Notes: generated by a model not told the origin, from the letters alone. Shown: positions 3,094 to 21,336, counted from the first letter of the stretch. The stretch: DNA of 33,988 bases from Candidatus Thorarchaeota archaeon (GCA_016840855.1 JAEORO010000121.1:1-33988); one strand, 5' to 3'. Translations and numbers: made by a program.

Positions 3094-6000
3094 CTAGTCA
3101 CGGTAACGTTTCACTCCGACAGCTCCCACAAACGCAAGCGCAATGAGTCCGGCAACTGGGAATATCCAGTGAATGGTTGGTAGGAAGTCTTGGCCATCTG
3201 GTATGCCATCGCCATCGGTGTCTCTGTTGTTGGGATCAGTTCCCAGAACCACAACCTCTGTGTAGTCGTCGAGACCATCCCCATCACTATCTGCTTCTCT
3301 AGGATTAGTATGGTACGTGTGCACTTCTACTCCATCAATCAGGAGATCAAAATCGGTGTCGTTGTTCATCGGCTGAGTGAAGTATGCTGTCTTCTCTTGA
3401 TAGTCGTTAAGCCCATCTGAATCGCTATCTGAGATGGTAGGGTCAGAGTACGGGGTCTCGAAAAGCTCCCTATAGTCACTCAACCCATCAAAGTCCATAT
3501 CATCTTCTAGGGGGTCTGTAGCAATGCCTAGTGGGTTGATGCCCCAAACTTCATCATAGTCGCTGATGCGATCCTCGTCAGTATCCTCCTCAAGTGGATC
3601 TGTGTCATAGACCATCACCTCTTCGAAGTCACTGAGCCCATCAAAGTCACTATCCGGTAACAACGGATCTGTGTCATAGATCAGGTACTCCTCTCCGTCT
3701 GTCAACATGTCAAAATCAGTGTCAGAACCATTGATGTTCGTACCCAGTATAATTTCAAGTCCATCAATGAGGTCATCGTTATCAAAGTCTGGATCGTTAG
3801 GTAGAGTGTGCCAGACTCTCAACTCAACCCAGTTTGTGAGGCCATCTGAGTCACTATCCCAATCTCTATCAAGTGTACCAGGATGAGTCATGTTGGTCGT
3901 CGGGTCCGTTCCAGTCAGGATGACTTCTTCATAATCGCTCAACCAATCTGAATCAGTGTCATTGGAGTCTGGTAGTGTGTGCCATGTGTTTACCTCGGGA
4001 CCGTCCTCTAAACCATCTCCATCACTGTCTTTGTTGAGTGGGTTCGTTCCCCAGTCTTCAACCTCTTCATTATCATAGAGACCATCTCGGTCAGTGTCTC
4101 TGTTCCTCGGGTCTGTTCCATAGATCTTGCACTCTTCTCCATTTGATAGCGTGTCACCATCTTCATCATCATTGTAGTCTGAGATTCCGTTATCATTACT
4201 GTCAGGGTCTCTCGGGTCCGTCTTTGTCAGAACGCACTCCCAATAATTAGTGAGTAGGTCTCTATCCTCATCGTCAGCGCCATCGTTCTTGCCATCAGAG
4301 TCAGTGTCGAACATTCTTGGGTCTGTCTTGGTGAGTCGAATCTCCTGCTGGTTCGTTAGAAGGTCCCCATCTATGTCCCAGTCTGCATCTGATATGTTAT
4401 TGCCCTGAGTACTGTAGAGGGTTGGGTCTGTGTTGGTCATATTCACCTCTTCGAAATCTGTCAGTGAATCTTTGTCTGTATCACTAACTCGTGGATTTGT
4501 ATACACCCATCTGCTGCTCACTACACCACTGATATTGAAGGTCATGTAGAAGCCGTTTATCTCCTGTCCATCCAGAAGTTTGTCATTGTCTGTATCTTCT
4601 CGCAGAGGTGAAGTGTTGTAGATATTCAGCTCGGCTCCATCTCCGAGAGAGTCACCATCTGTGTCAAAGAGCAATGGATCTGTTTCGAAGACCTTGATTT
4701 CATCATAATCGGTAAGGTTGTCTGAATCTGTATCTGTATTATTCAGGAGAGTGTGCCATGTGAGCGCTTCTTCTGAGTCTTCTAGTCCATCATTATCGGT
4801 GTCCCTGTCATTGGGGTCACTTGACCAGTAGAATAGCTCGTCCCAGTCTCCGAGACCATCATCATCACTATCGAATTTGGTAGGTGATGTTTCCCAGACA
4901 AAGATTTCAGCATAATCACTGAGTAAGTCTAGGTCTGTGTCAACCATTGTACAGTTGGTTTCATAGAGATAGATCTCATCATAGTTGTTGAGTCCGTCTG
5001 CGTCTTGGTCATCTAGGTCATCAGGGATTGTGTCACCGTCTGTATCAAGCATAAGTGGATCTGTATGACTGTTGAACAGCTCGTCTGCATCAGCTATGTT
5101 ATCTGAATCAGTGTCATCATTGATTGGCGAGGTCTTGTAGATGTTCACCTCATCTCCATCACTAATGGTGTCAAAGTCTGTATCCCAGTTCTCCCAGTCA
5201 GTTCCATTCTCTAATTCCTCAGCATCATTTAATCCATCTTGATCTTTGTCGGCTTGAGTTGGATCCGTGTCATAGAGAATCCATTCCTCCCAGTCTGAGA
5301 GTGTATCTCCATCAGTATCATTTAGCAGTGGATCTGTTCCAATGTCTAATTCCAGTTTATCACTAAGGAGGTCGTCATCTGTGTCAATCGAGTTTGGGTT
5401 AGTCCCGTACGTGTTCCATTCATCACCATCGGACAACGTATCTCCATCACTGTCCCATGATGTTGGTGATGTTATTGAGAAGTATACCTCAAAGTAGTCA
5501 TCGAGTCCATCAGAATCGCTATCTGTGCCACTTGGGTCTGTGTGATAGATCCAGTACTCAACATAGTCACTTAGTTGGTCATTATCGCTATCTTGATCGG
5601 TAGGTGATGTGCCTGACACATACACCTCAAAACCATCTTTTAGCCCATCCAAATCGGTGTCCGGGGCTGTAACGTTTGAGTGGTAACCGTATATCTCCAA
5701 TGCGTTAGACAGACCGTCAGCATCATGGTCAAGTTGTCCATCAAGTGTGCCATTTCCATAAGTTGATGCCAGTAATGGGTTTGTTCCTAGAAGCTTTACC
5801 TCGACATAATCGTCCAGTTGATCTCCATCTGTGTCTTGTATGTTGATGTTAGTCCCATAGAACAACTCATCATCATCTCGAAGTCCATCACCATCACTAT
5901 CGCTCGAGAGCGGGTCAGAGAAGTAGACGAGAACCTCATACCCATCTCCAATATTGTCGTTGTCGCTATCAAAATCTCCGGGGTTTGTTTCGTAAACATC

Positions 6001-9000
6001 GATCTCATCGCCATTAGACAGTAAATCATTATCACTGTCAATCTGATAGTCTGTGTGTGTGGCATTGTACCACATGTTGTTCGGATTGGTGTGAGTAAGC
6101 TCGACTTCAACGTAATCTGAAAGTAGGTCTGAATCGGAGTCTGCCTTTAGAGGATTAGTACCATAGTCGTTCACTTCCTCTCCATCTAGGAGTTCATCTC
6201 CGTCAGTATCGTCCTTTAACGGGTTAGTGCCATAGAGGTACTCTTCACCATCTTCTAATCCATCAGAATCGCTGTCTGGCTCAAATGGCGAGGTTTCGCC
6301 TATATTTACAACGCCATTCGCATTGACATCCTCTCCGCGTTCTCCCAAGAGCGGTTCATAGATGCCATTGTGATTTGTGTCGTTCCAACCATCATACAAA
6401 CCGTCGTTATCACTATCTGGGTCTGTAGCATTAAGACCGACATCAATCTCCAGACCATCTCTAAGTCTATCTCCGTCTGTGTCCCAAAGGGTGACGTTGG
6501 TACCATAGGTCCTCAGTTCCTCAAGGTTCGTGAGACCGTCGTTATCTTGGTCATCCTGTCCATCGAGGATTCCGTCATCGTCGTCGTCGCTATCTGTGGG
6601 GTCAGTGTAGGTGTAGAGTACTTCTTCTCCATCAGTAAGCTGGTCTGAATCAGTATCAGCTGCTAGTGGGTCGCAGTCATTGAGGAACTCCTCTAAATTG
6701 TTCAGTTTGTCATTATCAGGGTCTTCCTCCCAGTCGTAAGTTCCGTTATCGTTCGTATCGTTATACAAGGGGTCAGTACCTGTCATCTCAACTTCGAACC
6801 AGTTGGGGAGGAGGTCCGCATCCTCATCGTCATTATAATCAGAGATGCCATTATCGTTACTGTCTGTATCATTGTAAATGGTATGTGTGATATACAGCTC
6901 TATCCCATTGCTAAGCCCATCGCCATCATCGTCCTCATCATAATCTGAAATACCATTATCGTTACTGTCCTCGTCGTTAGGATCGGTGCCCAGGATGGAA
7001 TATTCATCACCATCCTTAACATTGTCTCCATCAGTGTCTGGATTTCTGGGATGTGTGAATGTCACGTTCAACTCTTCAAAATTAGTTAGTCCATCGAGGT
7101 CGCTATCCTCGAGATCATCAGTAAGAGCTGATCCTCCAGAGTCTTTTAATGTAGGATTAGTCCGTGTCAAGTAAATCTCTTGATAGTTAGTAAGGGTATC
7201 ATTATCATAATCCCAGTTTCCATCCAATACTGTAGCGTTGAAAGTATGCGGATTTGTAGCATTCCAGAAGTACGGAGCACCTCTATACTTGACTTCATCT
7301 GGATCAAGAATCAAGTCAAAATCAGAGTCAACTAAAGTGGCGTTTGTTTTGTATGTAAAGACTTCCAAACCATCTCCCAGAGTATCTCCATCCGTATCAC
7401 TTTTCGTCACATTTGTGAAATAGACATAGCACTCCAAATAGTCATTCAGATTATCAAGGTCTGTGTCAGCAGAGTTCGGGTCAGAGCCCCAGTAATTGAC
7501 CTCGAGTCCATCTGTGATATTATCAAAATCTGTGTCATTATTTAGAGGGTCAGTGAAGTACGTGTTTACTTCTGCGCCATCATTCAAATCATCATCATCG
7601 CTATCGCTGTCTGACACACTAGTACCATACACGACATATTCGTCATAATCTGAAAGCCCGTCTCCATCTCCATCAGCTTTGAGAGGATTGGAGTGTACAA
7701 TCATGACTTCCTCATAATCAGTCAATGAGTCTCCGTCTGTGTCTTCATTGAGCGGCGAGGTCTTGCTGATTTTTACCTCATATCCATCGCTCAATAGGTC
7801 GTCATCGCTATCTGGGTCATAGACACCAGTTCCGAGCTGAATCTCTTTCCAGTTTGCGAGGTTGTCCCCATCCTGGTCATCATAGTAATCTGAAATACCG
7901 TTCCCATTTGTGTCCACATCATTAGGGTCTGTCTTAGTAATTCGCACCTCTTGGATATTAGTGAGCCCGTCCCCATCGTTATCATCCTGCGCGTCATTGA
8001 TATCATCAGAATCGCTGTCTGGGTCAGTTGGTAGAGTCAGGGTGACGTTGTTTTCCTCATAGTCTGTTAGTGAGTCCCCGTCTGTGTCTGCCTGATTCGG
8101 ATTGGTGCCAAGATATATCTCCTGCCAGTCTGTGAGTTTATCATTATCTGAGTCTTTTGCATTGGGGTTGGTTCCAAATGTAATGACCTCTGCGAAGTCA
8201 GATAGCTTGTCTCCATCTGAGTCCACCTTGAGAGGATTTGTACCATAGGTCAATACCTCTTGTCCATCATTCAGATTGTCGTTATCAGAATCGGGGTCGT
8301 TATACAACGTGCCCTCCATGACAATCTCACGCGCATCTGCAAGACCATCTTTGTCATAGTCTCGCCCGTACACGGAAACACCTCCTATGTTGGTGCCAAA
8401 TGCATACTCCTGACCTCCGAAATTGTCGAGGTCTCCAATGGCTAAAGCACCTGCGAACCCGTTTGCAGTGAGCTGATTGACTCTCCATCCTGTGGAGTTG
8501 TATATCGTTAGGGTGTTGGGTGTCCCAACAAGGACCTGTGCATTAGGCGGCGTATCTCCGATGTCGGGGAACCTTATATCATTGGGTTGCCCACCCATGG
8601 TCTTGTTCCATGCTAATACGCCAGAGGAAGAATATACCCTCAGTTGATTTGACGCAGTGCCCAGAGCAAATTCGTGCTCCCCACCCGCCACAAGATCTCC
8701 AACCCTGAGGGCAGAGATACTGCTACCAAGCTCGAGTTTGAACTCAAGACTCCCAGTGTCAGACCAGACATTGAGAGTACCATTAGTGTTCCCGTACAGC
8801 ATTTCCCAGTTCGATGTGAACGAGAGGTTTCCCATAGCAACGACCCTAATTGCTGTAGGACTCGTCTTCTCGAACACAATTGTGCCTGTGTCTTGTAAGA
8901 GAGTGAACCGCCTTCCATCAGAGGCCACTACAAACTCAGTTCGAGAGTCTGCGTCTATGTCCGCACCGGAAATCAATCGTACCTTGCCATTGCTCAGGTA

Positions 9001-9567
9001 GCTCCAGAGTGGAGTGGTGTTGATCTCGAAGGTGTAGACATAGAAGTCGTCACAGCCCACAACGACCTCCTCAAATCCGTCCCCATCGAGATGTCCGCCT
9101 GCAACAGCATAGACTGGCTCAGGAAGTGACATGTTCATTTGAACTGCCTTATCTGCTCCAATCACAACGATGCCATAGTCTGTACCTATGAGGATCTCCT
9201 GACCGGAAGCAGCAGTGCCATCGATAGCTGCAATTGCGTGTGGTGTCGAGCCAAGTCTCAGCTTCCACAAGAGTGTGCTATTGTCATCGAAGAGGTACAG
9301 TGTACCATTCTGGGTGACAACCGCAACCTCATCTCGCAGGTCTGCATCGAAGTTGTCAACAACAAGATCCACGACCTGATTTCCTGTCGTGGTCGACCAA
9401 ACAATGGCTGTGTTGAACGGTGCAATCTCTGCGAGTGAGTGCGGAACCTCTTGAGCCTGTGGGCTCGTGATTGTGACGGGCTGTAAGCCTGTATCTGTTG
9501 TCTGGATTTGTAGTCCTGCGAGTGCGCAGACAACCAGTAGGGCTATGATCACATGATAGGTCTTCAT
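3094..9567 (-). CDS. Giant cell-surface protein: signal peptide, FG-GAP/BBS2-like beta-propeller, long TSP3-type Ca-binding repeat array, C-terminal TM anchor
   Basis: N-terminal MKTYHVIIALLVVCALAG; blades with D-x-D-x-D-G-x-x-E-hydrophobic-G motifs; about 1700 aa of D(S/T)DxDGLxDxxE...TDP repeats; C-terminal WIFPVAGLIALAFVGAVGV-KRYR. GGAGG RBS and ATGA overlap with the upstream ATPase. Confidence 0.9.
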   Translation of the reverse strand: MKTYHVIIALLVVCALAGLQIQTTDTGLQPVTITSPQAQEVPHSLAEIAPFNTAIVWSTTTGNQVVDLVVDNFDADLRDEVAVVTQNGTLYLFDDNSTLLWKLRLGSTPHAIAAIDGTAASGQEILIGTDYGIVVIGADKAVQMNMSLPEPVYAVAGGHLDGDGFEEVVVGCDDFYVYTFEINTTPLWSYLSNGKVRLISGADIDADSRTEFVVASDGRRFTLLQDTGTIVFEKTSPTAIRVVAMGNLSFTSNWEMLYGNTNGTLNVWSDTGSLEFKLELGSSISALRVGDLVAGGEHEFALGTASNQLRVYSSSGVLAWNKTMGGQPNDIRFPDIGDTPPNAQVLVGTPNTLTIYNSTGWRVNQLTANGFAGALAIGDLDNFGGQEYAFGTNIGGVSVYGRDYDKDGLADAREIVMEGTLYNDPDSDNDNLNDGQEVLTYGTNPLKVDSDGDKLSDFAEVITFGTNPNAKDSDNDKLTDWQEIYLGTNPNQADTDGDSLTDYEENNVTLTLPTDPDSDSDDINDAQDDNDGDGLTNIQEVRITKTDPNDVDTNGNGISDYYDDQDGDNLANWKEIQLGTGVYDPDSDDDLLSDGYEVKISKTSPLNEDTDGDSLTDYEEVMIVHSNPLKADGDGDGLSDYDEYVVYGTSVSDSDSDDDDLNDGAEVNTYFTDPLNNDTDFDNITDGLEVNYWGSDPNSADTDLDNLNDYLECYVYFTNVTKSDTDGDTLGDGLEVFTYKTNATLVDSDFDLILDPDEVKYRGAPYFWNATNPHTFNATVLDGNWDYDNDTLTNYQEIYLTRTNPTLKDSGGSALTDDLEDSDLDGLTNFEELNVTFTHPRNPDTDGDNVKDGDEYSILGTDPNDEDSNDNGISDYDEDDDGDGLSNGIELYITHTIYNDTDSNDNGISDYNDDEDADLLPNWFEVEMTGTDPLYNDTNDNGTYDWEEDPDNDKLNNLEEFLNDCDPLAADTDSDQLTDGEEVLYTYTDPTDSDDDDDGILDGQDDQDNDGLTNLEELRTYGTNVTLWDTDGDRLRDGLEIDVGLNATDPDSDNDGLYDGWNDTNHNGIYEPLLGERGEDVNANGVVNIGETSPFEPDSDSDGLEDGEEYLYGTNPLKDDTDGDELLDGEEVNDYGTNPLKADSDSDLLSDYVEVELTHTNPNNMWYNATHTDYQIDSDNDLLSNGDEIDVYETNPGDFDSDNDNIGDGYEVLVYFSDPLSSDSDGDGLRDDDELFYGTNINIQDTDGDQLDDYVEVKLLGTNPLLASTYGNGTLDGQLDHDADGLSNALEIYGYHSNVTAPDTDLDGLKDGFEVYVSGTSPTDQDSDNDQLSDYVEYWIYHTDPSGTDSDSDGLDDYFEVYFSITSPTSWDSDGDTLSDGDEWNTYGTNPNSIDTDDDLLSDKLELDIGTDPLLNDTDGDTLSDWEEWILYDTDPTQADKDQDGLNDAEELENGTDWENWDTDFDTISDGDEVNIYKTSPINDDTDSDNIADADELFNSHTDPLMLDTDGDTIPDDLDDQDADGLNNYDEIYLYETNCTMVDTDLDLLSDYAEIFVWETSPTKFDSDDDGLGDWDELFYWSSDPNDRDTDNDGLEDSEEALTWHTLLNNTDTDSDNLTDYDEIKVFETDPLLFDTDGDSLGDGAELNIYNTSPLREDTDNDKLLDGQEINGFYMTFNISGVVSSRWVYTNPRVSDTDKDSLTDFEEVNMTNTDPTLYSTQGNNISDADWDIDGDLLTNQQEIRLTKTDPRMFDTDSDGKNDGADDEDRDLLTNYWECVLTKTDPRDPDSNDNGISDYNDDEDGDTLSNGEECKIYGTDPRNRDTDRDGLYDNEEVEDWGTNPLNKDSDGDGLEDGPEVNTWHTLPDSNDTDSDWLSDYEEVILTGTDPTTNMTHPGTLDRDWDSDSDGLTNWVELRVWHTLPNDPDFDNDDLIDGLEIILGTNINGSDTDFDMLTDGEEYLIYDTDPLLPDSDFDGLSDFEEVMVYDTDPLEEDTDEDRISDYDEVWGINPLGIATDPLEDDMDFDGLSDYRELFETPYSDPTISDSDSDGLNDYQEKTAYFTQPMNNDTDFDLLIDGVEVHTYHTNPREADSDGDGLDDYTEVVVLGTDPNNRDTDGDGIPDGQDFLPTIHWIFPVAGLIALAFVGAVGVKRYRD
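3180..8365 (-). repeat. Coding tandem array of bacterial-type thrombospondin type-3 (TSP3_bac-like) repeats
   Basis: Units of about 22-23 aa (DTDGDGLSDGEE...GTDPLN), roughly 70 by length estimate, diverged at DNA level. Confidence 0.9.
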
Positions 9568-10562
9568 GGTGTGGTTCCTCCTATTTCACCAGGATTGTGT
9601 TTCCAGGGTTTTACCTGGAAATAGTCAAAGAAGTCAGCCTCAACCAGACTGACCTCTTCAAATGGTAGTTTCATTTCGTTGAGTCTCTTGATGATTGGTA
9701 GGATTTGCTCATCTGGGTCATCGATGAAAAGCTTCATCGCATTCCTACCAGCTGGCGCAGTGTACTGAACTCCTGGCAATGCATTGATTCGCCTGATAAT
9801 CTCGGGTGTCATGGCATGCATTACAAGACGGATGCTCTCACCCCTACCCGGGAGTGTTGAGATTAGTTCCTGTGGTGTGCCAAACTGACTCACATCACCT
9901 TCCTCAAGAAGGCATACTCGTGTACAATAATCAACAATCTCAAGGTCATGGCTGATGATGACCATGGTCGTGCCCAGTTCATAATTAAGTTCTTTCAGGT
10001 AGTTAAGGGTTTCATGCCGCAGATGTGCGTCTAAACCTGTGGTGGGCTCGTCAAGTAATAGCACGGGAGGGTTGTGTATCATCCCAAGGCAGATGGACAC
10101 TCTCTTCCGTTCTCCACCCGACAATCTGTCCACTCTCTTTGTGATGAGCTCCTCATCGAATCCTAGGATGGTGAGGATGTTTCTGGCTCGCTTCTCAATC
10201 TCCTTAGGTCTTAAACCGAACATTCGACCGAAGAACTGGGCGTTCTGAAGTGGGTTAAAATCATAATAGAGGCTCAAATGTTCCAGCTGTGGTACATATC
10301 CTACAAGGAGGCTTATCAGTCGAGCCTTTTTCGTGACATCATATCCGCCAACGAATGCCTTTCCATCAGTTGGGCTTATTTGACCGGTAAGCACTCTCAG
10401 CACTGTCGTCTTGCCAGCTCCCGAGGCTCCTATGATTCCCAGAAACTCCCTCTTGTTTGCGAAAAACGATGCTCCTTTCAGAGCGAAGAAATTCCCAAAG
10501 GCTACTTTGAGGTCGATGATGTCAATCTCCCTGTGCGTTTCCTTGGCATCAGGTTTTCCCAC
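9564..10562 (-). CDS. ABC transporter ATP-binding protein (ABC-2/DrrA/GldA-like)
   Basis: Walker A GASGAGKT, Q-loop GYVPQ, signature LSGGE, Walker B LLLDEP, H-loop ISH; C-terminal accessory domain; GGAGG upstream. Confidence 0.95.
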   Translation of the reverse strand: MGKPDAKETHREIDIIDLKVAFGNFFALKGASFFANKREFLGIIGASGAGKTTVLRVLTGQISPTDGKAFVGGYDVTKKARLISLLVGYVPQLEHLSLYYDFNPLQNAQFFGRMFGLRPKEIEKRARNILTILGFDEELITKRVDRLSGGERKRVSICLGMIHNPPVLLLDEPTTGLDAHLRHETLNYLKELNYELGTTMVIISHDLEIVDYCTRVCLLEEGDVSQFGTPQELISTLPGRGESIRLVMHAMTPEIIRRINALPGVQYTAPAGRNAMKLFIDDPDEQILPIIKRLNEMKLPFEEVSLVEADFFDYFQVKPWKHNPGEIGGTTP

Positions 10563-10563
10563 A

Positions 10564-13500
10564 TCACACGCCTCCTACCTTGTCGCTCACGCGATCAAAC
10601 ATCTTGCGTCCTTCCTCAATGTCTTGCATGAGCACACGCAACGCCTCGATCTTCTGAATACGATCAAGGTCTTCTCTCTGTATGAGTTCTTCAAGCTGAG
10701 TGAATGCTGCCAGCAGTGCCATCAACGTGTTGTCAATCTCACGAACAAGATCAGTATCAATCTCCGGAATCCTGAGCCGCTTTCTCATCCTCCTACGGTT
10801 CCAAACTAAATAACCAATTAGTCCACCAAATATGCCAAGAGATGTCAATAGCGCAAACTCAGCCATGGTCAAGAATTGAGTTGTGGGTTCAGTGGGTGGA
10901 GTTGGTTCTAGTTCGTAGAGATAGAAACTTACACTCGCATATGTCATAGCGTATTTCTCATCACCCAAGATGAGGAATATGCCATTGATTTTTCCCTCCC
11001 TTCTCCAGTAACTTGGTGCAAATTGAGAGGAGTAGAGACCATCCTCCACAAAACCTGCAATAAAGAATGTAAGGCTTCCATTAGGTAGCTCATATGCAAT
11101 GGCAACGAACAAGTCATTTACAGGATTTCCATAGTAATCCTTCAAATTCAGATTTACATAGACACTTCGACCAGCTTCATAGTAGATTGTGTCCTCCGAG
11201 AGGCTTGTCGAAGTTGTAAGAGTGTTACGAAGCAAGAATTGATTCAGGTTATCGAGCAGTTTTCTGTTGTTGCACTTCACCAGATTCTTGTTCATGAATA
11301 TTTTAGATGATCCGAATATTGCGAGTTCTGGGTCAGTTGTATCTAGAACAATGACGCTGTTTCCATTGAGTCTGGCATTTGCTTGGGACTGGTTGTTCAT
11401 AATATAGGTGCCACCACCCAACCAGATGCAGTCCAGACCGAGACCCAGAGGTTTGGTTGTTACAATGTCAGTTGTGTTCTCTTCGTCATGACTTCCTGCA
11501 AGGAAATATCCATACTTTGTTAGCAACGGGTTGAGTATAGTCGTATTTGCATTATCATCATTATCGCCAAGAACGACGAGCGTGCCACCATTTTGGGAGA
11601 AGTCCCGTAAAATATCAATCTCTGTCTGATTGAACTCCTCAGTTGGCGCAATTATAAAGACAGTTGAGAAAGTCGTCAATAGACCTTCACTTAGCTCCAC
11701 TCCTGGAGTTTCGATGAGGTCCAGACCGACATCAGCCATTATTTTCTTCATATTTGAGAGACCTGAAAATGTAGTCATTCTGAAGGAGTCGAAGAGACTA
11801 GTGATTGATCCCAGGCTATCGAGATCATTCAAACTAAAGTCCATCCCCACAGAGCTATCATCTACGAAGTCTTCCTGAGCTAATGGAAAACCGAATCCAG
11901 TATCTCCGGTAAGATTTCCAGTGTCACCTAAGCCACCAATGTCTCCCATAAGCGACCCAAATCCACCTCCATGGGATGTATCAAGTAGCATCATCGCTCG
12001 TGGATATTTCAACACTCTTTCGAGTGTGATATTTGTACTCCATCCTAACTCAGTTTCAAGCACATAATCACACCTATGATACCCATCCATTCCAATTGGC
12101 GGAGCCATCAGAAACAGTGAGAAGTCATAGTATCCTTCGATTGTTTCAGCGCTTGTCAAGGACATGTTACCCCACTCTGTCGCATTCCCATAATTTGAGA
12201 TAGTGAGATTTCCTAATGATTCAGTGGTTGATAAGACAAAACTGTAAAGTCCAAAGTCTGCTGGGAATCGAATATCAAATGGGGCAAATGGTAGCTGCTT
12301 TGGAAATACTGATGTTGATGATATCGGAGTTATTATGAATACATCTCGCAGCAAAAAGTCGTCTAGGATTCCGACTCCTGCTGTAAGTAGTAGTTGCGTC
12401 GGATTAGAAACGAGATTCACAATTTGATCTAGTCCTGTGGAAACCGCCCAAGCTGCAGTTCTGATGCCCTCTGTTTCTGGTCGCCAATCTGTGACGAGCA
12501 CCTTTGCTTTGAATGGTTCTATCACATCATATGAGAAGTACTTTCCAAACATAGTTCCCTGATCTGCAGAACCCTCTACCACCAACATGGCTCCTATTGC
12601 TGTGGAATTCTCTTGTCCGATGTTCATAATTACAGCTCTCGATTGATATGTTTCACCTGCTTTAGCTATTCGTGGGACATCAGCTTCTACAACCATTAGG
12701 TCTCCTTGAGATAATGCCCCTGCAGGAATGCCATATTGCCACATGGCATTAATTGAAGCATCAAGAACTGTACGATTTTCTCCGAAGCCCATAGCTATCG
12801 TCACATTAACGAGCTCATCAGCGTCTAGAGTGCCAAAATCCCATTGCATTGCCAAACCAACGTCACCATCAAAAACAGTTGTTCCTGTCAGGTTATTATT
12901 TGACACGTGATTGGCAATATTGGAAGAGTTGCCAACTTCGAAGGCAGAAAGTGGAATACTTGAGTTCATTCCAACGTAAAAGTTGCCGTAACTCTCTGAA
13001 AGACCATATGCGAAAAGCTGCTGGTCATCAAGGTCATATTTACCATGATCTGCTTCACCATCAAGATAGAGGTCCATTGAATACGACACATACAGACTCA
13101 CATTCTCAACAGGGTCACTACCAAGATTGAGGATGAATGGAGTTATTCTGAATGCTGTTAAAGGCAGAGGTGAATAGAATGTGAGATTATATGACTCTAC
13201 CAATAATGTGACATAGATTGAGTCATTGAATGATAATACTCCTACATATCGGTTGTAAGGGACCGTGAGCGACTGTGAAACAACCTGGTGTAACTCTCTT
13301 TTGACATCAAACATCATCAGATTCATCGGGTCTTCGTTGTTCCATTTTAACGAGAACATTCCCATCATCAGGTGAATTCCTGAATCCTGAGGATTTCGTT
13401 GATCGAGGGCTACAAGAGTTGTTCCGAAACTGCTCATCAGCATCGTAGTTGATGCATCTGTTCCACTTGCAGTGACAAGTCCTAATGCAAGAAGAGGTAG

Positions 13501-14946
13501 ACTTGTAGTTCGCGTGTGTGGGTCTCCAGGTGTTTGCTGTGTACTTAGATAGTCGAATGCAGCTTGTAAATTGAGAAGCCCTGCTCCTCCATCATTTGCT
13601 CCATATCCGATTTGAGTCGCAGTATCTCTAAGTACATTCGCTAGGGTTATTGGAGTAGCTCTATCGAAAGCTTGTAGTAGGATTGCTACAGCTCCAGCGG
13701 TGATAGCAGCAGATGCTGCTGTTGTGTCTGCAATTGTATAGTTTTCATCTATAGTTTCACCAAGTGAACCTCCGAGTAATCCTCCGAGTCCTCCTAGGTC
13801 TCCAAGATCACCCAGCGATAGGTCGCCGAAACCAAGACTACTAAGACCAACTCCTGCTTTCGCTCCAACCACGCCAACTCCGGGAGCTACAAGATCTGGC
13901 TTTGTTAATAGTGAGAGAGAGGGGCCTCTCCCTGAGAAATCAGGAATCTCCTGATTTTCTGTGTCATATGCTCCCACGCAGAATGATGCGGCACTTCCTC
14001 CAGGTGACATTACTGTCAAATAGTCTGGTCCATCATCACCTGCTGCAGCTATTACGAGGATGCCCTTGTTGGCAGCAATCTCAATCGCCTCAGAAACCGC
14101 ATCATCAGGCGCACCAAGAGTATTGAATGGGAGCAAGATGATATCAGCGCCACGACTACTTGCCCAATCTATGCCTGACACAATCCAGCTAGGAGCAGCA
14201 AAGAGACCTCCCAAAGTCACCTTCGCAGAGAGCAGAGTCGCACCTGGAGCAATGCCTGCATACACTCCTCCTGACATGTTTCCCGTTCCTGCTGCAACCG
14301 AAGCCGCATATGTTCCATGTCCAACAAGGTCCAAGGGTAATGTGTCTGCCTCTACAAAGGATGCAAACGAAGAAACACTAAAGTCAGGATGGAGGGGGTC
14401 AACTCCAGTATCAAGAACTGCGATGACAGTACCAGTTCCATTATATCCTGCATCCCAAAGGTCTCTCGCTCCAATTCGGTCAATTAGGGGTACATAATCT
14501 TCTGAAGATGATGCCGAAGTCACAATATTTTGCGTTTGTTGAATAGCTGAAACCTCATTTGACCAAATTTTTGTGATGAATGACTCCTTAGCCAAGTCCA
14601 CGATAGAAGAACCTAACATCCTCACATGGAGCATCCCTATTGATTCAAAGGCTTCAATCAATTCCGCAGTTCGGTCTGCAAACAATATTGCATTCTTAGC
14701 TTTGAATGCTCCTACCTGTTCGTCATACCCCACAAGAACATCAGTATACTGGTTTAAGGAGGTCTGGTTGAGTAATGAATCATCAATCTTATCCATCGGT
14801 TCTACCAAATCTGGACTGATTGCAATAGCAGGTGGGAAAACTGATAGTCCACTGACTATAATGATACATACAAGAATGTATGCTACCACTTTCTGGGTCA
14901 GATGCACCATCGTATGTTTCAGTCCAGCCATCAAATCACTTCTCAA
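10564..14946 (-). CDS. Membrane-anchored S8 subtilase-like protein, probably catalytically inactive, with GIFT-like and Ig-like domains, TM and helical cytoplasmic tail
   Basis: IAVLDTG (Asp), GHGT (His), FSGRGP and KPDLVAPG are present, but GTSMA is replaced by TTAAS. Later come LLDTSH...FIIAPTEEF...EIDILRDFSQNGGTLVVLGD...LNPLL (GIFT/DUF4350-like) and the TM FALLTSLGIFGGLIGYLVW-NRRR. True start probably ATG 14931 or 14910. Confidence 0.85.
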   Translation of the reverse strand: MRSDLMAGLKHTMVHLTQKVVAYILVCIIIVSGLSVFPPAIAISPDLVEPMDKIDDSLLNQTSLNQYTDVLVGYDEQVGAFKAKNAILFADRTAELIEAFESIGMLHVRMLGSSIVDLAKESFITKIWSNEVSAIQQTQNIVTSASSSEDYVPLIDRIGARDLWDAGYNGTGTVIAVLDTGVDPLHPDFSVSSFASFVEADTLPLDLVGHGTYAASVAAGTGNMSGGVYAGIAPGATLLSAKVTLGGLFAAPSWIVSGIDWASSRGADIILLPFNTLGAPDDAVSEAIEIAANKGILVIAAAGDDGPDYLTVMSPGGSAASFCVGAYDTENQEIPDFSGRGPSLSLLTKPDLVAPGVGVVGAKAGVGLSSLGFGDLSLGDLGDLGGLGGLLGGSLGETIDENYTIADTTAASAAITAGAVAILLQAFDRATPITLANVLRDTATQIGYGANDGGAGLLNLQAAFDYLSTQQTPGDPHTRTTSLPLLALGLVTASGTDASTTMLMSSFGTTLVALDQRNPQDSGIHLMMGMFSLKWNNEDPMNLMMFDVKRELHQVVSQSLTVPYNRYVGVLSFNDSIYVTLLVESYNLTFYSPLPLTAFRITPFILNLGSDPVENVSLYVSYSMDLYLDGEADHGKYDLDDQQLFAYGLSESYGNFYVGMNSSIPLSAFEVGNSSNIANHVSNNNLTGTTVFDGDVGLAMQWDFGTLDADELVNVTIAMGFGENRTVLDASINAMWQYGIPAGALSQGDLMVVEADVPRIAKAGETYQSRAVIMNIGQENSTAIGAMLVVEGSADQGTMFGKYFSYDVIEPFKAKVLVTDWRPETEGIRTAAWAVSTGLDQIVNLVSNPTQLLLTAGVGILDDFLLRDVFIITPISSTSVFPKQLPFAPFDIRFPADFGLYSFVLSTTESLGNLTISNYGNATEWGNMSLTSAETIEGYYDFSLFLMAPPIGMDGYHRCDYVLETELGWSTNITLERVLKYPRAMMLLDTSHGGGFGSLMGDIGGLGDTGNLTGDTGFGFPLAQEDFVDDSSVGMDFSLNDLDSLGSITSLFDSFRMTTFSGLSNMKKIMADVGLDLIETPGVELSEGLLTTFSTVFIIAPTEEFNQTEIDILRDFSQNGGTLVVLGDNDDNANTTILNPLLTKYGYFLAGSHDEENTTDIVTTKPLGLGLDCIWLGGGTYIMNNQSQANARLNGNSVIVLDTTDPELAIFGSSKIFMNKNLVKCNNRKLLDNLNQFLLRNTLTTSTSLSEDTIYYEAGRSVYVNLNLKDYYGNPVNDLFVAIAYELPNGSLTFFIAGFVEDGLYSSQFAPSYWRREGKINGIFLILGDEKYAMTYASVSFYLYELEPTPPTEPTTQFLTMAEFALLTSLGIFGGLIGYLVWNRRRMRKRLRIPEIDTDLVREIDNTLMALLAAFTQLEELIQREDLDRIQKIEALRVLMQDIEEGRKMFDRVSDKVGGV

Positions 14947-16627
14947 TAGTACCTTGAATCAGACCTCGTGTGATCGCGACATAGTAGTCTACCATGTCTG
15001 CTACTGACTTTGTTTTAACAATCTTAACTGCGATATCCTGGTCTTTTAGAGCTATTACGCATCTCTCAGCAACCACTTCCAAAGGCTCATCCGTGAAGAT
15101 TTTCAGGAGTTCCCCACGCTGAAGCACGAAGCGAACTCCCTTTACAGTTTCTAGAGTTCTTCTTGCTCTCGGGTCAACCTCCTCCAGCACAATGCCAACA
15201 GCAAACCCTCTAGAGGGCATTGACTCCTTTAACGAGGCTGGGCTTCCGAATGCAACTAGGCTCTTACCTCGCATGAATACCGCTACCTTGTCGCAGAACT
15301 CTGCTTCAACAGGATAGTGTGTAATGACTATGATTGAAGTTCCATACTCCTGATTGATATACGAAAGATAACTCCAGAGCTCATTTCGATTATCTGGATC
15401 CAAACCTGATGTGGGTTCATCCATGAGAAGCACTTTGGGCTTATGTGCTAAGGCAATTGCAATAGAAACCCGTCTCTGCTGTCCACCACTTAGTTCTCGG
15501 GTAGCACTATTTCCCTTCTCTAGGACGCCAAAGTCTCTGAGAAGTGTCTTTCCTCTTTGAATGAGTTGCCATTCTGGAATGTCATACTGCTTTCCAAAGG
15601 CAATAATATTCTCGAGAGGTGTGAAGGTTTCGTACATGTACGAAAGGTCCTGAGGGCAGTATCCAAAGAAGTGTCTGACTTTCTGTGTCTGTCTTGAGTC
15701 AATACCCGCGATTCTCGCAACTCCAGTACTAGGAATGTCACCAATTAACGCCTTCACAGTTGTGGATTTCCCTGCACCAGACTCGCCAATGATGGCTAGC
15801 ATCTCCCCTTCTCGCATCGAGAATGAAACATTTTCAATGAGTTTCTTTCCACTCTTGATTGCCACAGTCAGGTTTCTTGCTGCAAGTACATCCCTATACT
15901 CGGGAGCTTGTTTCCAAGCAAAGGGCATTATGTAGACCTTGTTCGCCAGAACTGTGAGGTTTGGATTATAACTGGGTCCAATCAGAAGCTGCGGCTGTGC
16001 AACCATGTAGATTTTTGGATCTCCAACCTCTTCCTCCGGAGCAACTCTTACTTCAAGAGTCCCCTCTGGGAGAATAGGAGATGGTTTAGTTGTTGCACCG
16101 ACAATTGATCCTTTGATCATGATTAAGGTCTTATCAGACCCTCTTCGACCCCATACAGTGCACTCGACTTCTTGGCTCTTCATTTTTTCAAGATCTTTCA
16201 CTGCTTGCTGTAAATCTCGACCATCATAATACAAGTCATCCGCCATATTCCTTTTCAAGTAGTTCTGGACGGTGATTTGTGTCGCAGCTACATCATCCTG
16301 AGATGAGCTCTCTCCGCCCACTGTCAGAACTTTATCAAGCTCTCCTGCTCGTTGCCTTCGAAGATCTTCTTCAACATAGATGGCAATTCTTCGTGTGAGG
16401 ACACCTTTCTTGACTTTCAAGACTCGACCCTTGAACTTCACTTCTTTGCCTGTTGATGTCAGCTTTCCTTCGACCTCGCAGTGCAATTCGCGGGTCTGTC
16501 GAGTGATGCACCAATCAATGGCCTCACCTACTCGAGCTCCTGAGAAGTATGCTTCTTCAACAAAAGCAGGCTTTTCTTCTTCAGGCAAATCTCTACTATC
16601 TGTGTCGAGAATCATCTTCATAATCAC
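14936..16627 (-). CDS. ABC transporter ATP-binding protein with a ~240-aa N-terminal extension (two TrmB C-terminal-like subdomains)
   Basis: Walker A GESGAGKS, GYCPQ, LSGGQ, LLMDEP, ITH. The extension contains EVEGKLTSTGKEVKFKGRV...LTVGG...DDVAATQITV. True start may be ATG 16621 or 16615 after the GGTGA motif. Confidence 0.9.
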   Translation of the reverse strand: MIMKMILDTDSRDLPEEEKPAFVEEAYFSGARVGEAIDWCITRQTRELHCEVEGKLTSTGKEVKFKGRVLKVKKGVLTRRIAIYVEEDLRRQRAGELDKVLTVGGESSSQDDVAATQITVQNYLKRNMADDLYYDGRDLQQAVKDLEKMKSQEVECTVWGRRGSDKTLIMIKGSIVGATTKPSPILPEGTLEVRVAPEEEVGDPKIYMVAQPQLLIGPSYNPNLTVLANKVYIMPFAWKQAPEYRDVLAARNLTVAIKSGKKLIENVSFSMREGEMLAIIGESGAGKSTTVKALIGDIPSTGVARIAGIDSRQTQKVRHFFGYCPQDLSYMYETFTPLENIIAFGKQYDIPEWQLIQRGKTLLRDFGVLEKGNSATRELSGGQQRRVSIAIALAHKPKVLLMDEPTSGLDPDNRNELWSYLSYINQEYGTSIIVITHYPVEAEFCDKVAVFMRGKSLVAFGSPASLKESMPSRGFAVGIVLEEVDPRARRTLETVKGVRFVLQRGELLKIFTDEPLEVVAERCVIALKDQDIAVKIVKTKSVADMVDYYVAITRGLIQGTIEK

Positions 16628-17806
16628 CTAATCCAATGTTGGCTTCTTTGAGAATATGTAAGTAGCAACCAAAATCGCTACAACTGAGAATCCAAACAGA
16701 GTGAGAACTCTGTCAATAACCTCAATCAGGGATAGTCCTTTGAAAGCTGTGTCAATCAGAAGGTTAAGTCCTTGATTCATTGGCAAGATTGAATCTAATA
16801 TTCCTACATCAATGAAAAATCCTGAAAGAATCAGAGTAGCAAATAATACGAAGAGAAACATCTGATTCGCTTGTAATCTAGTACCTGCAACTGCTGAAAT
16901 TAATATCCCTGTGGCTGAACCTGTGAGTGAACTCAGGCTCATAATGATCACAAGAGAGATGAAACTTGTATTGAGATTAAGATCGAATGCTAGTACCCAC
17001 AAGGTAACCAATAGAAGTGACTGGAAGAAACCAATGATAACATATCCAAACACTTTAGCTACTATTACCTCCAGTCTACTAGTTGGTGTTAGAAGCATTC
17101 TTCGAAGTGGTGTATCACCTACGATTGATTGTGCTGATGTCATTGCAATCCCAAGATAGCTTGAAAAAATAACAATGAAACCTCCAAACACACTCTCTAG
17201 GTACCCCCCTTCTGGTGTGAACTCAATAGTCACGCCGGGAAACACCTCTGATCGAATCCAGAGTTTTGATGCTCTGAATAGGATAGTTCCTGCTTGCACA
17301 ATTCCTTGAATGGAAGCTGATCCCAGTAAATCGTTGCCATCATAATGCACTTCGATGTATGTTGGCTCATTTATTGTGAGGTTGGCTTCAAATCCGTCAG
17401 GAATAACGATGTATGCGTCAATTAATTGGTCGTACAGTGCTCTATATGCATCAGCTGTACTATTATAGAGTGTCACATTTGCCAATTCATCAAAGAAACC
17501 AGTCAAGTTCTCAGAAAGGTCATCTCCGTCATAAGTTCTAGTTGTATCTAAATCCACTACACCAAGCAAAATTCCACTTCCTGTAGTGGTTTCATTGTCG
17601 TCGCCACCACCACCTATACCTCCCCCTCCTCCAAGCCCCATACCCCCCATGCTACTGGACTCTGTCACATACCAGAGCATGCCAATAAGTGCAGCTGGGA
17701 GCATGAAAATCAGAAGCAGTGCAACTTTATCCTTTACTATTAATCGAAGTTCTTTCACTACCATATTTCTGATGCGTCGGGATGGTTTTGTGAGAACTTC
17801 TGCCAT
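16628..17806 (-). CDS. ABC-2 type transporter permease (YhhJ/GldF-like) with large extracellular loop
   Basis: N-terminal KELRLIVKDK plus TM1, extracellular loop (GVVDLD...YIVIPDGF), LRRMLLTP...VIVAK coupling region, five further TMs, LSGFF and LPM motifs. Confidence 0.9.
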   Translation of the reverse strand: MAEVLTKPSRRIRNMVVKELRLIVKDKVALLLIFMLPAALIGMLWYVTESSSMGGMGLGGGGGIGGGGDDNETTTGSGILLGVVDLDTTRTYDGDDLSENLTGFFDELANVTLYNSTADAYRALYDQLIDAYIVIPDGFEANLTINEPTYIEVHYDGNDLLGSASIQGIVQAGTILFRASKLWIRSEVFPGVTIEFTPEGGYLESVFGGFIVIFSSYLGIAMTSAQSIVGDTPLRRMLLTPTSRLEVIVAKVFGYVIIGFFQSLLLVTLWVLAFDLNLNTSFISLVIIMSLSSLTGSATGILISAVAGTRLQANQMFLFVLFATLILSGFFIDVGILDSILPMNQGLNLLIDTAFKGLSLIEVIDRVLTLFGFSVVAILVATYIFSKKPTLD

Positions 17807-20460: not shown

Positions 20461-21336
20461 TCATATATCGATACGTACTGGTGTCTGGTCATCATGCCAT
20501 TCCCAGACATCTAAAATGCATTTGGTGTCTTTTGGAATCCCCTTTAATTTAAAGCCTGCAAAGAGATACGCGCCGTCTATATACCTCCTGTCTTTTCCTT
20601 GAGGTAATTTCTTGAGAAATTCAATAGCGGCACTATCATACTCTCTTGCTACAATTATGGCTCTTGCTGGAAAATACGGTTGGACCAACATCTCATCCTT
20701 TCTCATGGTTAAGACAGCAAAATTGTCCAACGAGTCAATGAAGTCGATTATATGCGCCCTTCCAGCTCGTGTATCAATAACCTTGACAAAACTATAGTTC
20801 TCCCCAAAATGTCCCGCTGAGTCACTTCCGTTTGAGTCTTTTCTTCCAGCATCAATTAGTAAATCCACAGTGCCTTGAGAACCATCTTGCTTCATTAGAC
20901 TAGGTCTGATTGAAACTTTCCCATCATACTCATTTTGAATGAATTCTGAAACTCTAGTTATGAAGGGATTCTGGATTTTTCGAAGGTATTGGTCAGCAAC
21001 CTCTGTGAACTCGCTGTATAACGTTGTTGAAGCTTCTGAACTCAAACCACTCTCTTCAAACTGTCTTCCTAACTCATCTGCCAAGGAATAGGCTTGTTCG
21101 TATTCTTTTTTCTTAGGTGCAATGAGTGCAGTTACAATCTTGTCTCTAGGAGCTAAATAAATCACCTTTTCCTCAGTGGTGAAGGATGATAATCCTCCAA
21201 ATTTCATCTCTTTCGTGAAATGTGCAATAGCTGCTATGAAACTAGAAAATAACGAAGGGTCTGTCTTTGTCTTCATTCTGGAAAATAAAGGAACTCCTGC
21301 TGCTGCGTCGAATATGACTATTCCTTCAATATCCAC
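20461..21336 (-). CDS. Longin-like domain fused to a restriction-endonuclease-like fold
   Basis: N-terminal GIVIFDAAAGVPLFSR...DPSLFSSFIAAIAHFTKEM...LSSF is a typical Asgard longin pattern. The C-terminal VDLLID...FVKV...IIDF...RAIIVAREYDSAAIEF resembles an Mrr-type PD-(D/E)xK fold. Confidence 0.7.
   Translation of the reverse strand: MDIEGIVIFDAAAGVPLFSRMKTKTDPSLFSSFIAAIAHFTKEMKFGGLSSFTTEEKVIYLAPRDKIVTALIAPKKKEYEQAYSLADELGRQFEESGLSSEASTTLYSEFTEVADQYLRKIQNPFITRVSEFIQNEYDGKVSIRPSLMKQDGSQGTVDLLIDAGRKDSNGSDSAGHFGENYSFVKVIDTRAGRAHIIDFIDSLDNFAVLTMRKDEMLVQPYFPARAIIVAREYDSAAIEFLKKLPQGKDRRYIDGAYLFAGFKLKGIPKDTKCILDVWEWHDDQTPVRIDI

Follow-up and report, generated by a model that had tools for sequence, protein, structure and literature searches.

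Introduction

Catalysis by peptidases of the S8 (subtilisin) family needs a serine nucleophile and an asparagine oxyanion hole. According to the passages of PMC7200643 drawn on here, CspC and CspA of C. difficile are S8 pseudoproteases that retain their prodomains and act as regulators, and the substituted residues can vary between Csp homologs. The subject of this report is a gene for an archaeal protein in which both the serine and the asparagine are replaced. The gene lies on the minus strand of a 33,988-nt stretch of DNA from Candidatus Thorarchaeota archaeon (GCA_016840855.1 JAEORO010000121.1:1-33988), termed the window below, to which all coordinates refer. Public databases name the protein and its relatives "S8 family serine peptidase", and no paper on the family is among the titles and abstracts listed for the literature on archaeal subtilisin-like pseudoproteases, Asgard GldG/GIFT/IFT52 and Asgard OST48/Wbp1.

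Eukaryotic site-1 protease (MBTPS1/S1P/SKI-1), as described in the sections of PMC11231238 used here, consists of prodomains, an S8 domain (D218, H249, S414, N338), a P-like sandwich (479-616), a GIFT domain (617-998), a membrane helix and a tail. WBP1/OST48 homologs are placed only in Heimdallarchaeia in the part of Eme et al. 2023 (PMC10307638) consulted. The results given below favor the interpretation, with a probability of roughly 0.7, that a conserved and selectively maintained pseudo-protease is the binding or scaffold head of a GldG-like accessory subunit of an ATP-binding cassette (ABC) transporter.

Results

The active site lacks the nucleophile and the oxyanion asparagine

Residue counts among near orthologs refer to a MAFFT alignment of 121 proteins, mostly Thorarchaeota, taken from the matches listed in a search of 5.8 billion proteins. 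The search gave 202 homologs, the 120 listed having about 1450 residues and 57-100% identity; among those listed with a source name, nearly all are from Thorarchaeota. A second, distant set comprises 32 orthologs. The open reading frame (ORF), its protease-like domain and the key residues are as follows.

10564..14946, minus strand: whole ORF of the predicted pseudo-subtilase/GIFT membrane glycoprotein, 1460 aa from TTG in an uninterrupted frame
13507..14496, minus strand: Peptidase_S8-fold domain, residues 151-480, catalytically degenerate
14410..14412 (codon), minus strand: Asp179 in AVLDTGV, kept catalytic Asp position (BPN' Asp32); D in 117/121 orthologs, 4 gaps
14317..14319 (codon), minus strand: His210 in VGHGT, kept catalytic His position (BPN' His64); H in 114/121
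14035..14037, minus strand: Asp304 in AAAGDDGP, replacing the oxyanion-hole Asn (BPN' Asn155); D in 121/121 and in 28/32 distant orthologs
13717..13719, minus strand: Ala410 (GCA) in TTAASAAITAG, replacing the nucleophile Ser (BPN' Ser221)

The domain belongs to the S8 fold family by both its profile and its subtilisin alpha/beta fold. Pfam Peptidase_S8 (PF00082) covers residues 170-452 with profile positions 1-282 of 288, at E 1.4e-37 and 130 bits (cut-off 21.8). HMMER comparison with PDB sequences maps Asp179, His210 and Asp304 on Asp32, His64 and Asn155 of subtilisin BPN', and aligns the query ADTTAASAAITAG without gaps onto APGTAMATPHVAG of 3afg_A (ProN-Tk-SP), an entry that presumably carries an engineered Ser-to-Ala change at the nucleophile. 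The Asp-His-Ser triad of active S8 enzymes is therefore broken by Ala410, and the oxyanion Asn is replaced by Asp304. Because Ala and Asp occupy the Ser and Asn positions, the serine-protease cycle should not be able to run.

These residue assignments had been made in a sequence-only reading of the window, and all of them were reproduced. Translation of 10564-14946 on the minus strand is open throughout, in agreement with the intact 1460-aa frame claimed; the kept Asp and His codons lie exactly where they had been placed; the change of AAGN to AAGD corresponds to Asp304; and the placement of Ala at the catalytic Ser is obtained both in the gap-free alignment to PDB subtilases and with Pfam. 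The form called in databases (P0002) has 1448 aa, as expected if translation begins at Met13.

An assembly artefact at the Ala codon is ruled out by a contig from a different study (run X2), which is identical to the window across 13545-13783, with 0 differences including at that codon. The codons of Asp179, His210 and Asp304 are identical in all contigs compared that span them. Near-identical DNA occurs in sequencing runs of six studies, one of which is possibly the source of the window; no RNA run was among the matches listed. In the same genome, five other S8 genes (L001, L003, L004, L005, L006/L008) retain the G-T-S and A/S-A-G-N motifs; in a further S8 locus (L007), pattern matching found neither.

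The loss is shared by the family

GTSM was found in none of the 121 near orthologs. The nucleophile position holds Thr in 62, Ala in 50 and Ser in nine; the oxyanion position holds Asp in every one; and the His position holds His in 114, Ser in three and Pro in two, with two gaps. Within the genus of the window, codon 410 is GCA, GCT, ACA, ACT or TCA, with single first-base differences among them. On a FastTree phylogeny of 120 orthologs, which leaves out P0002 (the alternative-start form of the window's protein), at least 22 state changes fall on the nucleophile position and eight on Ser412. Such repeated exchange among Ala, Thr and Ser is the behavior of a small-residue structural site, not of a nucleophile.

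If the register of the alignment were wrong, Ser412 or Thr409 could be the true nucleophile and the enzyme active. A serine does lie two residues downstream of Ala410 (TTAASAA) and a threonine immediately upstream, and the sequence-only reading had raised these hydroxyls as candidates. Neither is conserved as a nucleophile would be: Ser412 is Ala in 14 of the 121 near and 23 of the 32 distant orthologs, and Thr409 corresponds to the Thr that precedes Ser in canonical subtilases (the G-T-S motif). In addition, the HMMER match is free of gaps, the flanking AG-A-LL helix motif fits this register only, and the oxyanion Asn is missing whatever the register. The long helix of the structural model begins at Thr409, which would put Ala410 at the helix N-terminus, the site of the subtilase nucleophile. 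A shifted register with Ser412 as nucleophile was rejected on the gap-free alignment, the helix start and the lack of conservation of Ser412, and an active enzyme of this kind is very improbable.

Beyond the near orthologs, breadth was sampled within the phylum, in 301 genomes. A match at E <= 1e-20 is present in 75 of the 76 sampled genomes of the window's own family, some matches being partial or restricted to the S8 domain. Full-length orthologs of 1400-1790 aa and 31-42% identity occur in seven other Asgard families. Written in the order Asp/His/oxyanion/Ser, their active sites read as follows.

Family f2: D-R-D-A
Family f12: D-H-D-A
Family f7: D-H-D-A; one genome G-H-D-A
Family f19: D-H-D-L
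Family f30: D-H-D-D
Families f9 and f24: D-R-D-G

Across the 32 distant orthologs the His position is His in 14, Arg in 11, Ser in four and Glu in two. At the Ser position distant orthologs may have Gly, Leu, Asp or Phe; the whole architecture is kept in them, and in most such families the operon as well. Matches confined to the S8 domain in f3, f15, f18, f20 and f28 have the canonical D-H-N-S and belong to different proteins. The loss of Ser is thus ancient and family-wide rather than strain-specific, given that GTSM is absent from all near orthologs and that Ala, Leu, Asp or Gly stands at this position in the seven other families.

An exhaustive phmmer search with the S8 domain places the family among active relatives. 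Among the best 149 representatives of 50% clusters, 110 are canonical, with Asn and a G-T/S-S motif; 33 carry Asp instead of the oxyanion Asn, 30 of them without a G-T/S-S motif; and four more keep Asn, with Gly at the Ser site and no His. In a quick IQ-TREE phylogeny of 83 S8 domains, hand-picked from about 280 proteins and supported by the SH-like approximate likelihood ratio test (SH-aLRT) only, all 38 sampled pseudo-domains lie on one side of a branch (SH-aLRT 99), and the nearest S8 relatives are Asgard S8-GIFT proteins. The sister of the pseudo clade (SH-aLRT 97) is P0190, a GIFT-containing protein that keeps D-H-N-S. The Ser helix of P0190 (AWGTSPATAIVSG) already resembles that of the dead clade, and P0190 may be a transitional form. 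These sequences are most simply explained by a single ancient loss, after which His and Asp decayed further in individual lineages.

Constraint is strongest in the dead domain

The ratio of nonsynonymous to synonymous substitution rates (dN/dS) was estimated by the Nei-Gojobori method from 18 genus-level orthologs. Of the eight regions compared, S8 residues 151-365 have the lowest value, 0.043; the values are 0.063 for S8 residues 393-480, 0.054-0.086 for the middle, GIFT and tail regions, 0.12 for a Gly-rich insertion and 0.163 for the prodomain. Only the ranking of these values is reliable, because dS is near saturation (medians 1.3-2.0). The dead S8 domain is the best-kept part of the protein and is under purifying selection.

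Two loci (L013, L027) were dropped from this comparison for in-frame stops. Altogether three orthologs have a single in-frame stop in an otherwise full-length match: G293:C6 (L013) with TGA, G200:C106 (L027) with TAG and G005:C73 with TAA. These stops could be sequencing errors, recent inactivation or recoding.

Recent decay (a pseudogene or an inactivation limited to the strain), like an error of sequencing or assembly in the Ser codon, has nothing in its favor beyond the single Ala codon taken in isolation. Such an explanation is refuted by the intact frame, the identical Ala codon in the contig from another study, the family-wide loss, dN/dS values of 0.04-0.16 and the monophyly of the pseudo clade, and its probability is close to nil.

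A non-canonical activity is a further alternative. Where present, Thr or Ser at position 410 might act as nucleophile, or Asp179, His210 and Asp304 might activate water or bind a metal. The conservation of these three residues (117, 114 and 121 of the 121 near orthologs), the presence of Thr in 62 and Ser in nine at position 410, and an S8 core with the lowest dN/dS of the protein would all fit such chemistry. It is opposed by Ala in the window's protein and in 50 of the 121, by the 22 or more flips among Ala, Thr and Ser between close relatives, and by distant orthologs that swap His (for Arg, Ser or Glu) and the Ser position (for Gly, Leu, Asp or Phe) while keeping the architecture. Moreover, in mutagenesis of subtilisin a carboxylate at the oxyanion position lowers kcat by orders of magnitude. 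On balance, a non-canonical enzyme is improbable.

The S8 fold is retained, with the prodomain docked in the model

Two structural models cover most of the protein. The parts they and the sequence delimit, in addition to the S8 domain, are listed below from the N-terminus; pLDDT is the predicted local distance difference test of the models.

14812..14910, minus strand: N-terminal hydrophobic signal peptide or anchor, about residues 13-45, ending AIA|IS; hydropathy segment 12-45
14497..14811, minus strand: subtilase-type prodomain, residues 46-150; phmmer alignment to 3afg_A from residue 69
13771..13851, minus strand: 27-residue insertion rich in Gly, Leu and Asp, residues 366-392, directly ahead of the former Ser helix; pLDDT 51-66
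11947..13506, minus strand: beta-rich region, residues 481-1000, including a super-sandwich; 13 of the 23 N-X-S/T sequons lie here
11806..11958, minus strand: disordered Gly/Asp-rich linker, about residues 997-1047; pLDDT <50 over model residues 530-580
11227..11811, minus strand: GIFT domain (GldG/IFT52/OST48/S1P-type), about residues 1046-1240
10915..11220, minus strand: Ig-like beta-sandwich, about residues 1243-1344, from the secondary structure of the model
10774..10866, minus strand: C-terminal transmembrane helix, about residues 1361-1391; model helix 894-924, hydropathy 1364-1382
10567..10773, minus strand: basic stop-transfer stretch and helical cytoplasmic tail, residues 1392-1460, with no sequons

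For residues 46-600, the AF2 model made from an alignment of 46 rows has a mean pLDDT of 86.5 and a predicted template-modelling score (pTM) of 0.84. Compared with BPN' chains, its catalytic domain gives Z of about 40 and a root-mean-square deviation (rmsd) of 1.8 Å, with 271 of 275 residues aligned. The prodomain and S8 domain together match unautoprocessed pro-subtilisin E (3whi_A; Z 45.7, rmsd 2.5 Å, 348/355 aligned) and ProN-Tk-SP (3afg_A; Z 46.1, rmsd 2.4 Å, 370 aligned). In the model the prodomain is docked on the S8 domain as in unprocessed zymogens, and the linker between them is of low confidence (block pLDDT 54). The prodomain may remain uncleaved.

The insertion at residues 366-392 is the gap between the aligned stretches 69-364 and 392-446 in the PDB-sequence search, and it is partly conserved among orthologs. 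GDLG-like repeats occur in the low-complexity segments 13771-13851 and 11806-11958, both on the minus strand.

The second model covers residues 468-1392 (pLDDT 81.6). The core of the super-sandwich resembles the N-domains of glucodextranase, glucoamylase, GH94 and GH116 (Z 18-22 over some 240 aligned residues). Assignment of the GIFT domain rests on Pfam IFT52_GIFT (PF23355), which scores 36 bits with the whole protein and 40.5 with the C-terminal piece against a cut-off of 27.2, and on structural similarity to IFT52 (5fms_A; Z 23.1, rmsd 2.1 Å, 193/228). A profile built from the last 420 residues of 18 orthologs matches IFT52 at E 1.6e-13, site-1 protease at 4e-4, Wbp1 at 0.0056 and OST48 at 0.85. 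Among the same number of orthologs, Pfam matches were obtained to IFT52_GIFT in 18/18, ABC_transp_aux in 18/18, DUF4350 in 17/18 and MBTPS1_4th in 9/18. The Ig-like sandwich aligns with OST48/Wbp1 jointly with the GIFT domain and the membrane helix.

N-X-S/T sequons number 23, against 11.1 +/- 3.0 in shuffled sequences, and none is in the tail, which fits an outside orientation for the rest of the protein. Taken with the N-terminal hydrophobic segment and the single C-terminal helix, the sequon pattern points to a large, probably glycosylated type-I surface protein.

The gene is embedded in an ABC-2 operon

The pseudo-subtilase gene is the third of five co-directional genes that abut or overlap. 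The other four are as follows.

16628..17806, minus strand: ABC-2 permease, gene 1; Pfam ABC2_membrane_3, E 7.4e-30
14936..16627, minus strand: ABC ATPase with N-terminal extension, gene 2, abutting the pseudo-subtilase gene; Pfam ABC_tran, E 1.1e-27
9564..10562, minus strand: second ABC ATPase, gene 4, beginning 1 base past the pseudo-subtilase stop codon; Pfam ABC_tran, E 2.6e-25
3094..9567, minus strand: 2157-aa protein, gene 5, with TSP3 repeats and beta-propeller matches; Pfam TSP3_bac, E 2.8e-43

The start of gene 5 overlaps the stop of the second ATPase gene by four bases. In tblastn comparisons of 20 genus loci, the pseudo-S8 gene lies next to the two ATPase genes; two of these loci stop before or within the second ATPase, and the short flanks of the genus loci do not extend to the permease. 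In families f2, f12, f19 (rearranged), f9 and f24 the permease is a neighbor as well. The N-terminus of the giant 2157-aa protein is syntenic in 18 of the 20 genus loci, the other two ending too early, and in f2; the giant protein is found downstream in f1 and f2 only. A prediction of the complex between the permease and the C-terminal GIFT/Ig/membrane-helix part, run without controls, scored 0.00 in both runs and counts neither way.

This arrangement bears on whether the protein acts with the transporter at all. It could instead be a regulator or decoy of active S8-GIFT subtilases, or simply a surface adhesin or a protein of the envelope. The same genome encodes apparently active S8 paralogs that have GIFT domains (L001, L003, L004), an apparently active S8-GIFT-membrane-helix-zinc-ribbon family occurs across Asgard archaea, the f7 and f30 orthologs have no ABC genes in the fetched flanks, and the control of CspB by CspC and CspA, as far as it is set out in the passages of PMC7200643 drawn on, offers a precedent. 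Such independence is nevertheless unlikely: an ABC ATPase gene adjoins the gene on either side, a few bases apart or overlapping, the same order is seen throughout the 20 genus loci and, together with the permease, in f2, f12, f19, f9 and f24, and GldG-type GIFT domains are ABC-2 accessory modules by Pfam annotation.

Some further features of the neighborhood were noted. The extension of the first ATPase, about 240 residues, has a weak match to the TrmB C-terminal domain (E 2.1e-7, 30.9 bits against a cut-off of 22.2) and is conserved in several families, where tblastn alignments begin near residue 18-20. The 2157-aa protein has at least eight TSP3 calcium-binding repeats. It also matches the middle region of BBSome BBS2 at 28.4 bits (cut-off 27), with no single stretch passing, which may be a generic propeller resemblance. 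Divergent from the operon, a 786-aa ORF at 18015-20375 (plus strand) has no Pfam match at E <= 0.01. Outside the operon, a 291-aa ORF at 20461-21336 (minus strand) matches the first longin domain of FUZ/MON1/HPS1 below threshold (E 6.9e-4; 20.3 bits, cut-off 26.1) and is possibly an Asgard longin-type protein.

Discussion

The proposal of the sequence-only reading that this is a subtilase domain without its nucleophile, and hence a pseudo-protease, is supported by Ala410 and Asp304, by the absence of GTSM from the near orthologs, by the low dN/dS and by the monophyly of the dead clade. Strain-specific decay, which that reading had allowed for, was not borne out by the ortholog alignment. As for the repurposing it suggested, the maintenance of a non-cutting domain is upheld by dN/dS and by the orthologs, whereas a role in binding, as a chaperone or as a sensor is still inferred.

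A conserved fold with a docked prodomain, a sandwich, a GldG-type GIFT module and an ABC-2 operon together point to a non-cutting head on an accessory subunit. The S8 domain would be kept by selection as a structural or ligand-binding head, and the protein would most likely be an extracytoplasmic accessory subunit of the operon's transporter, physically associated with it. The dead cleft, the docked prodomain and the carbohydrate-binding-type super-sandwich could hold a protein or glycan partner without cutting it. One such partner could be the giant calcium-binding surface protein whose gene lies downstream.

Several observations weigh against this interpretation. The loss of activity would follow from residue identity and established S8 chemistry, and the near-saturation of dS mentioned above limits what the dN/dS values can carry. 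Thr or Ser is present at the nucleophile position in 71 of the 121 near orthologs, and nine of the 121 have a formally complete Asp-His-Ser triad; judged from their sequences, some family members could keep weak chemistry. Asp179 (117/121) and His210 (114/121) are almost invariant in the Thorarchaeota clade, which is not obviously required by a purely structural role. ABC linkage is not universal, since no ABC genes were found in the flanking sequence retrieved for the orthologs of f7 and f30 (L032, L034, L041, L042). Finally, the match to Pfam ABC_transp_aux (PF09822) is below the gathering score (25.2-27.5 against 34.7 bits).

An extended version of the accessory-subunit interpretation is put forward tentatively, as it has a small chance of being right in full. 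The protein would be the moving outer arm of a novel archaeal mechanotransducing ABC machine that grips and releases a surface partner uncut, for instance the giant calcium-binding protein of the operon, and the family and its active S8-GIFT sisters would share ancestry with site-1 protease. ATP hydrolysis by the two ATPases would be transmitted through the permease to the GIFT/membrane-helix module and on to the pseudo-protease head. FtsEX, which drives the catalytically dead EnvC, provides an analogy for such a machine. If the shared ancestry is true, the body plan of site-1 protease is older than eukaryotes.

The accessory-subunit interpretation aside, the family is a natural example of a pseudoenzyme whose inactivation predates the divergence of several Asgard families, yet no other part of the protein is as conserved as the dead domain. 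Its catalytic residues decay stepwise in different lineages, which makes it a useful comparison to the Csp pseudoproteases. It also points to an ABC-2 cell-surface system, so far uncharacterised, that nearly all sampled Thorarchaeota genomes share. Given the label "S8 family serine peptidase", metabolic reconstructions that count Asgard extracellular peptidases would over-count protein-degrading capacity. The build of S8 domain, beta-sandwich, GIFT domain and membrane helix is common with site-1 protease and bears on which surface or secretory-pathway modules were already present in Asgard archaea.

Relation to described proteins

Compared with the Csp proteins, as far as these are characterized in the passages of PMC7200643 drawn on, the protein has the same combination of a subtilisin fold, substituted catalytic residues and a retained prodomain, the last seen here at the level of gene and model; selection would likewise maintain it for binding or regulation instead of cleavage. 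As with CspA, the substitutions vary among homologs, some of which have a formally intact triad. The Csp proteins are described there as soluble proteins of bacterial spores that work alongside the active protease CspB in a germination cascade, whereas the present protein is predicted to be a 1460-aa archaeal membrane glycoprotein with a super-sandwich, a GIFT domain and a membrane helix, encoded in an ABC-2 operon. Its Asgard host and ABC-2 neighbors place it outside the clostridial Csp clade with its cspBA-cspC/SleC context. No Csp structure was among the PDB sequence or structure matches listed, and no specific relation to Csp within S8 was seen.

GldG, which acts in gliding, has no protease-like head. 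As in the bacterial GldA/GldF/GldG-type ABC systems ("ABC-type uncharacterized transport system"), a GIFT-type auxiliary domain lies between hydrophobic segments and is encoded beside an ABC-2 permease and ABC ATPase(s), an association conserved in f1, f2, f12, f19, f9 and f24. All 18 orthologs examined match ABC_transp_aux at E <= 1, the best at 5e-11. Unlike GldG, the protein has about 1000 extra residues (prodomain, dead S8 domain, super-sandwich) before the GIFT domain, two ATPase genes and an archaeal host.

Tk-SP of Thermococcus kodakarensis (PDB 3afg, 9ues) is the best match to the prodomain and S8 domain in both sequence (E 2.1e-41) and structure. It differs in being an active secreted protease with a beta-jelly-roll C-domain, and it has no GIFT domain, membrane anchor or 27-residue Gly-rich insertion.

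Resemblance to OST48/Wbp1 extends over 320 of 410 residues of 8b6l_N at Z 18.8, but with an rmsd of 14.3 Å; 6ezn_G gives Z 18.1.

The order of parts, from signal peptide to short basic tail, is that of eukaryotic site-1 protease (PDB 8uw8, 9csd) as laid out in the sections of PMC11231238 used. Structurally, the S8 part matches site-1 protease at Z 40.7 and rmsd 1.4 Å over 278 residues, and the post-protease part at Z 18.9 with 308 residues aligned (chain residues 478-873). In sequence, the S8 domain resembles Tk-SP and the bacillar subtilisins more than site-1 protease. MBTPS1_4th scores 13.3 bits here against a cut-off of 27, and the nine orthologs that match it at E <= 1 reach 5.6e-5 at best; the S8 tree contains no eukaryotic sequences. 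Unlike the active site-1 protease of that description, the protein has a dead S8 domain and an extra beta region of about 500 residues, and is ABC-linked.

Asgard archaea also have a family of apparently active D-H-N-S membrane subtilases, in which the GIFT domain (about 570-830) comes right after the protease and is followed by a membrane helix and usually a cytoplasmic zinc ribbon (L039:6002-9862, L040:6513-10328, L045:6183-9923, L046:4095-7925, L047:4258-8040). Their layout is even closer to that of site-1 protease, and the S8 paralogs with GIFT domains in the genome of the window are L001, L003 and L004, as given above. S8 pseudoproteases as such are known; the novelty lies in the fusion that contains this one and in the operon around its gene.

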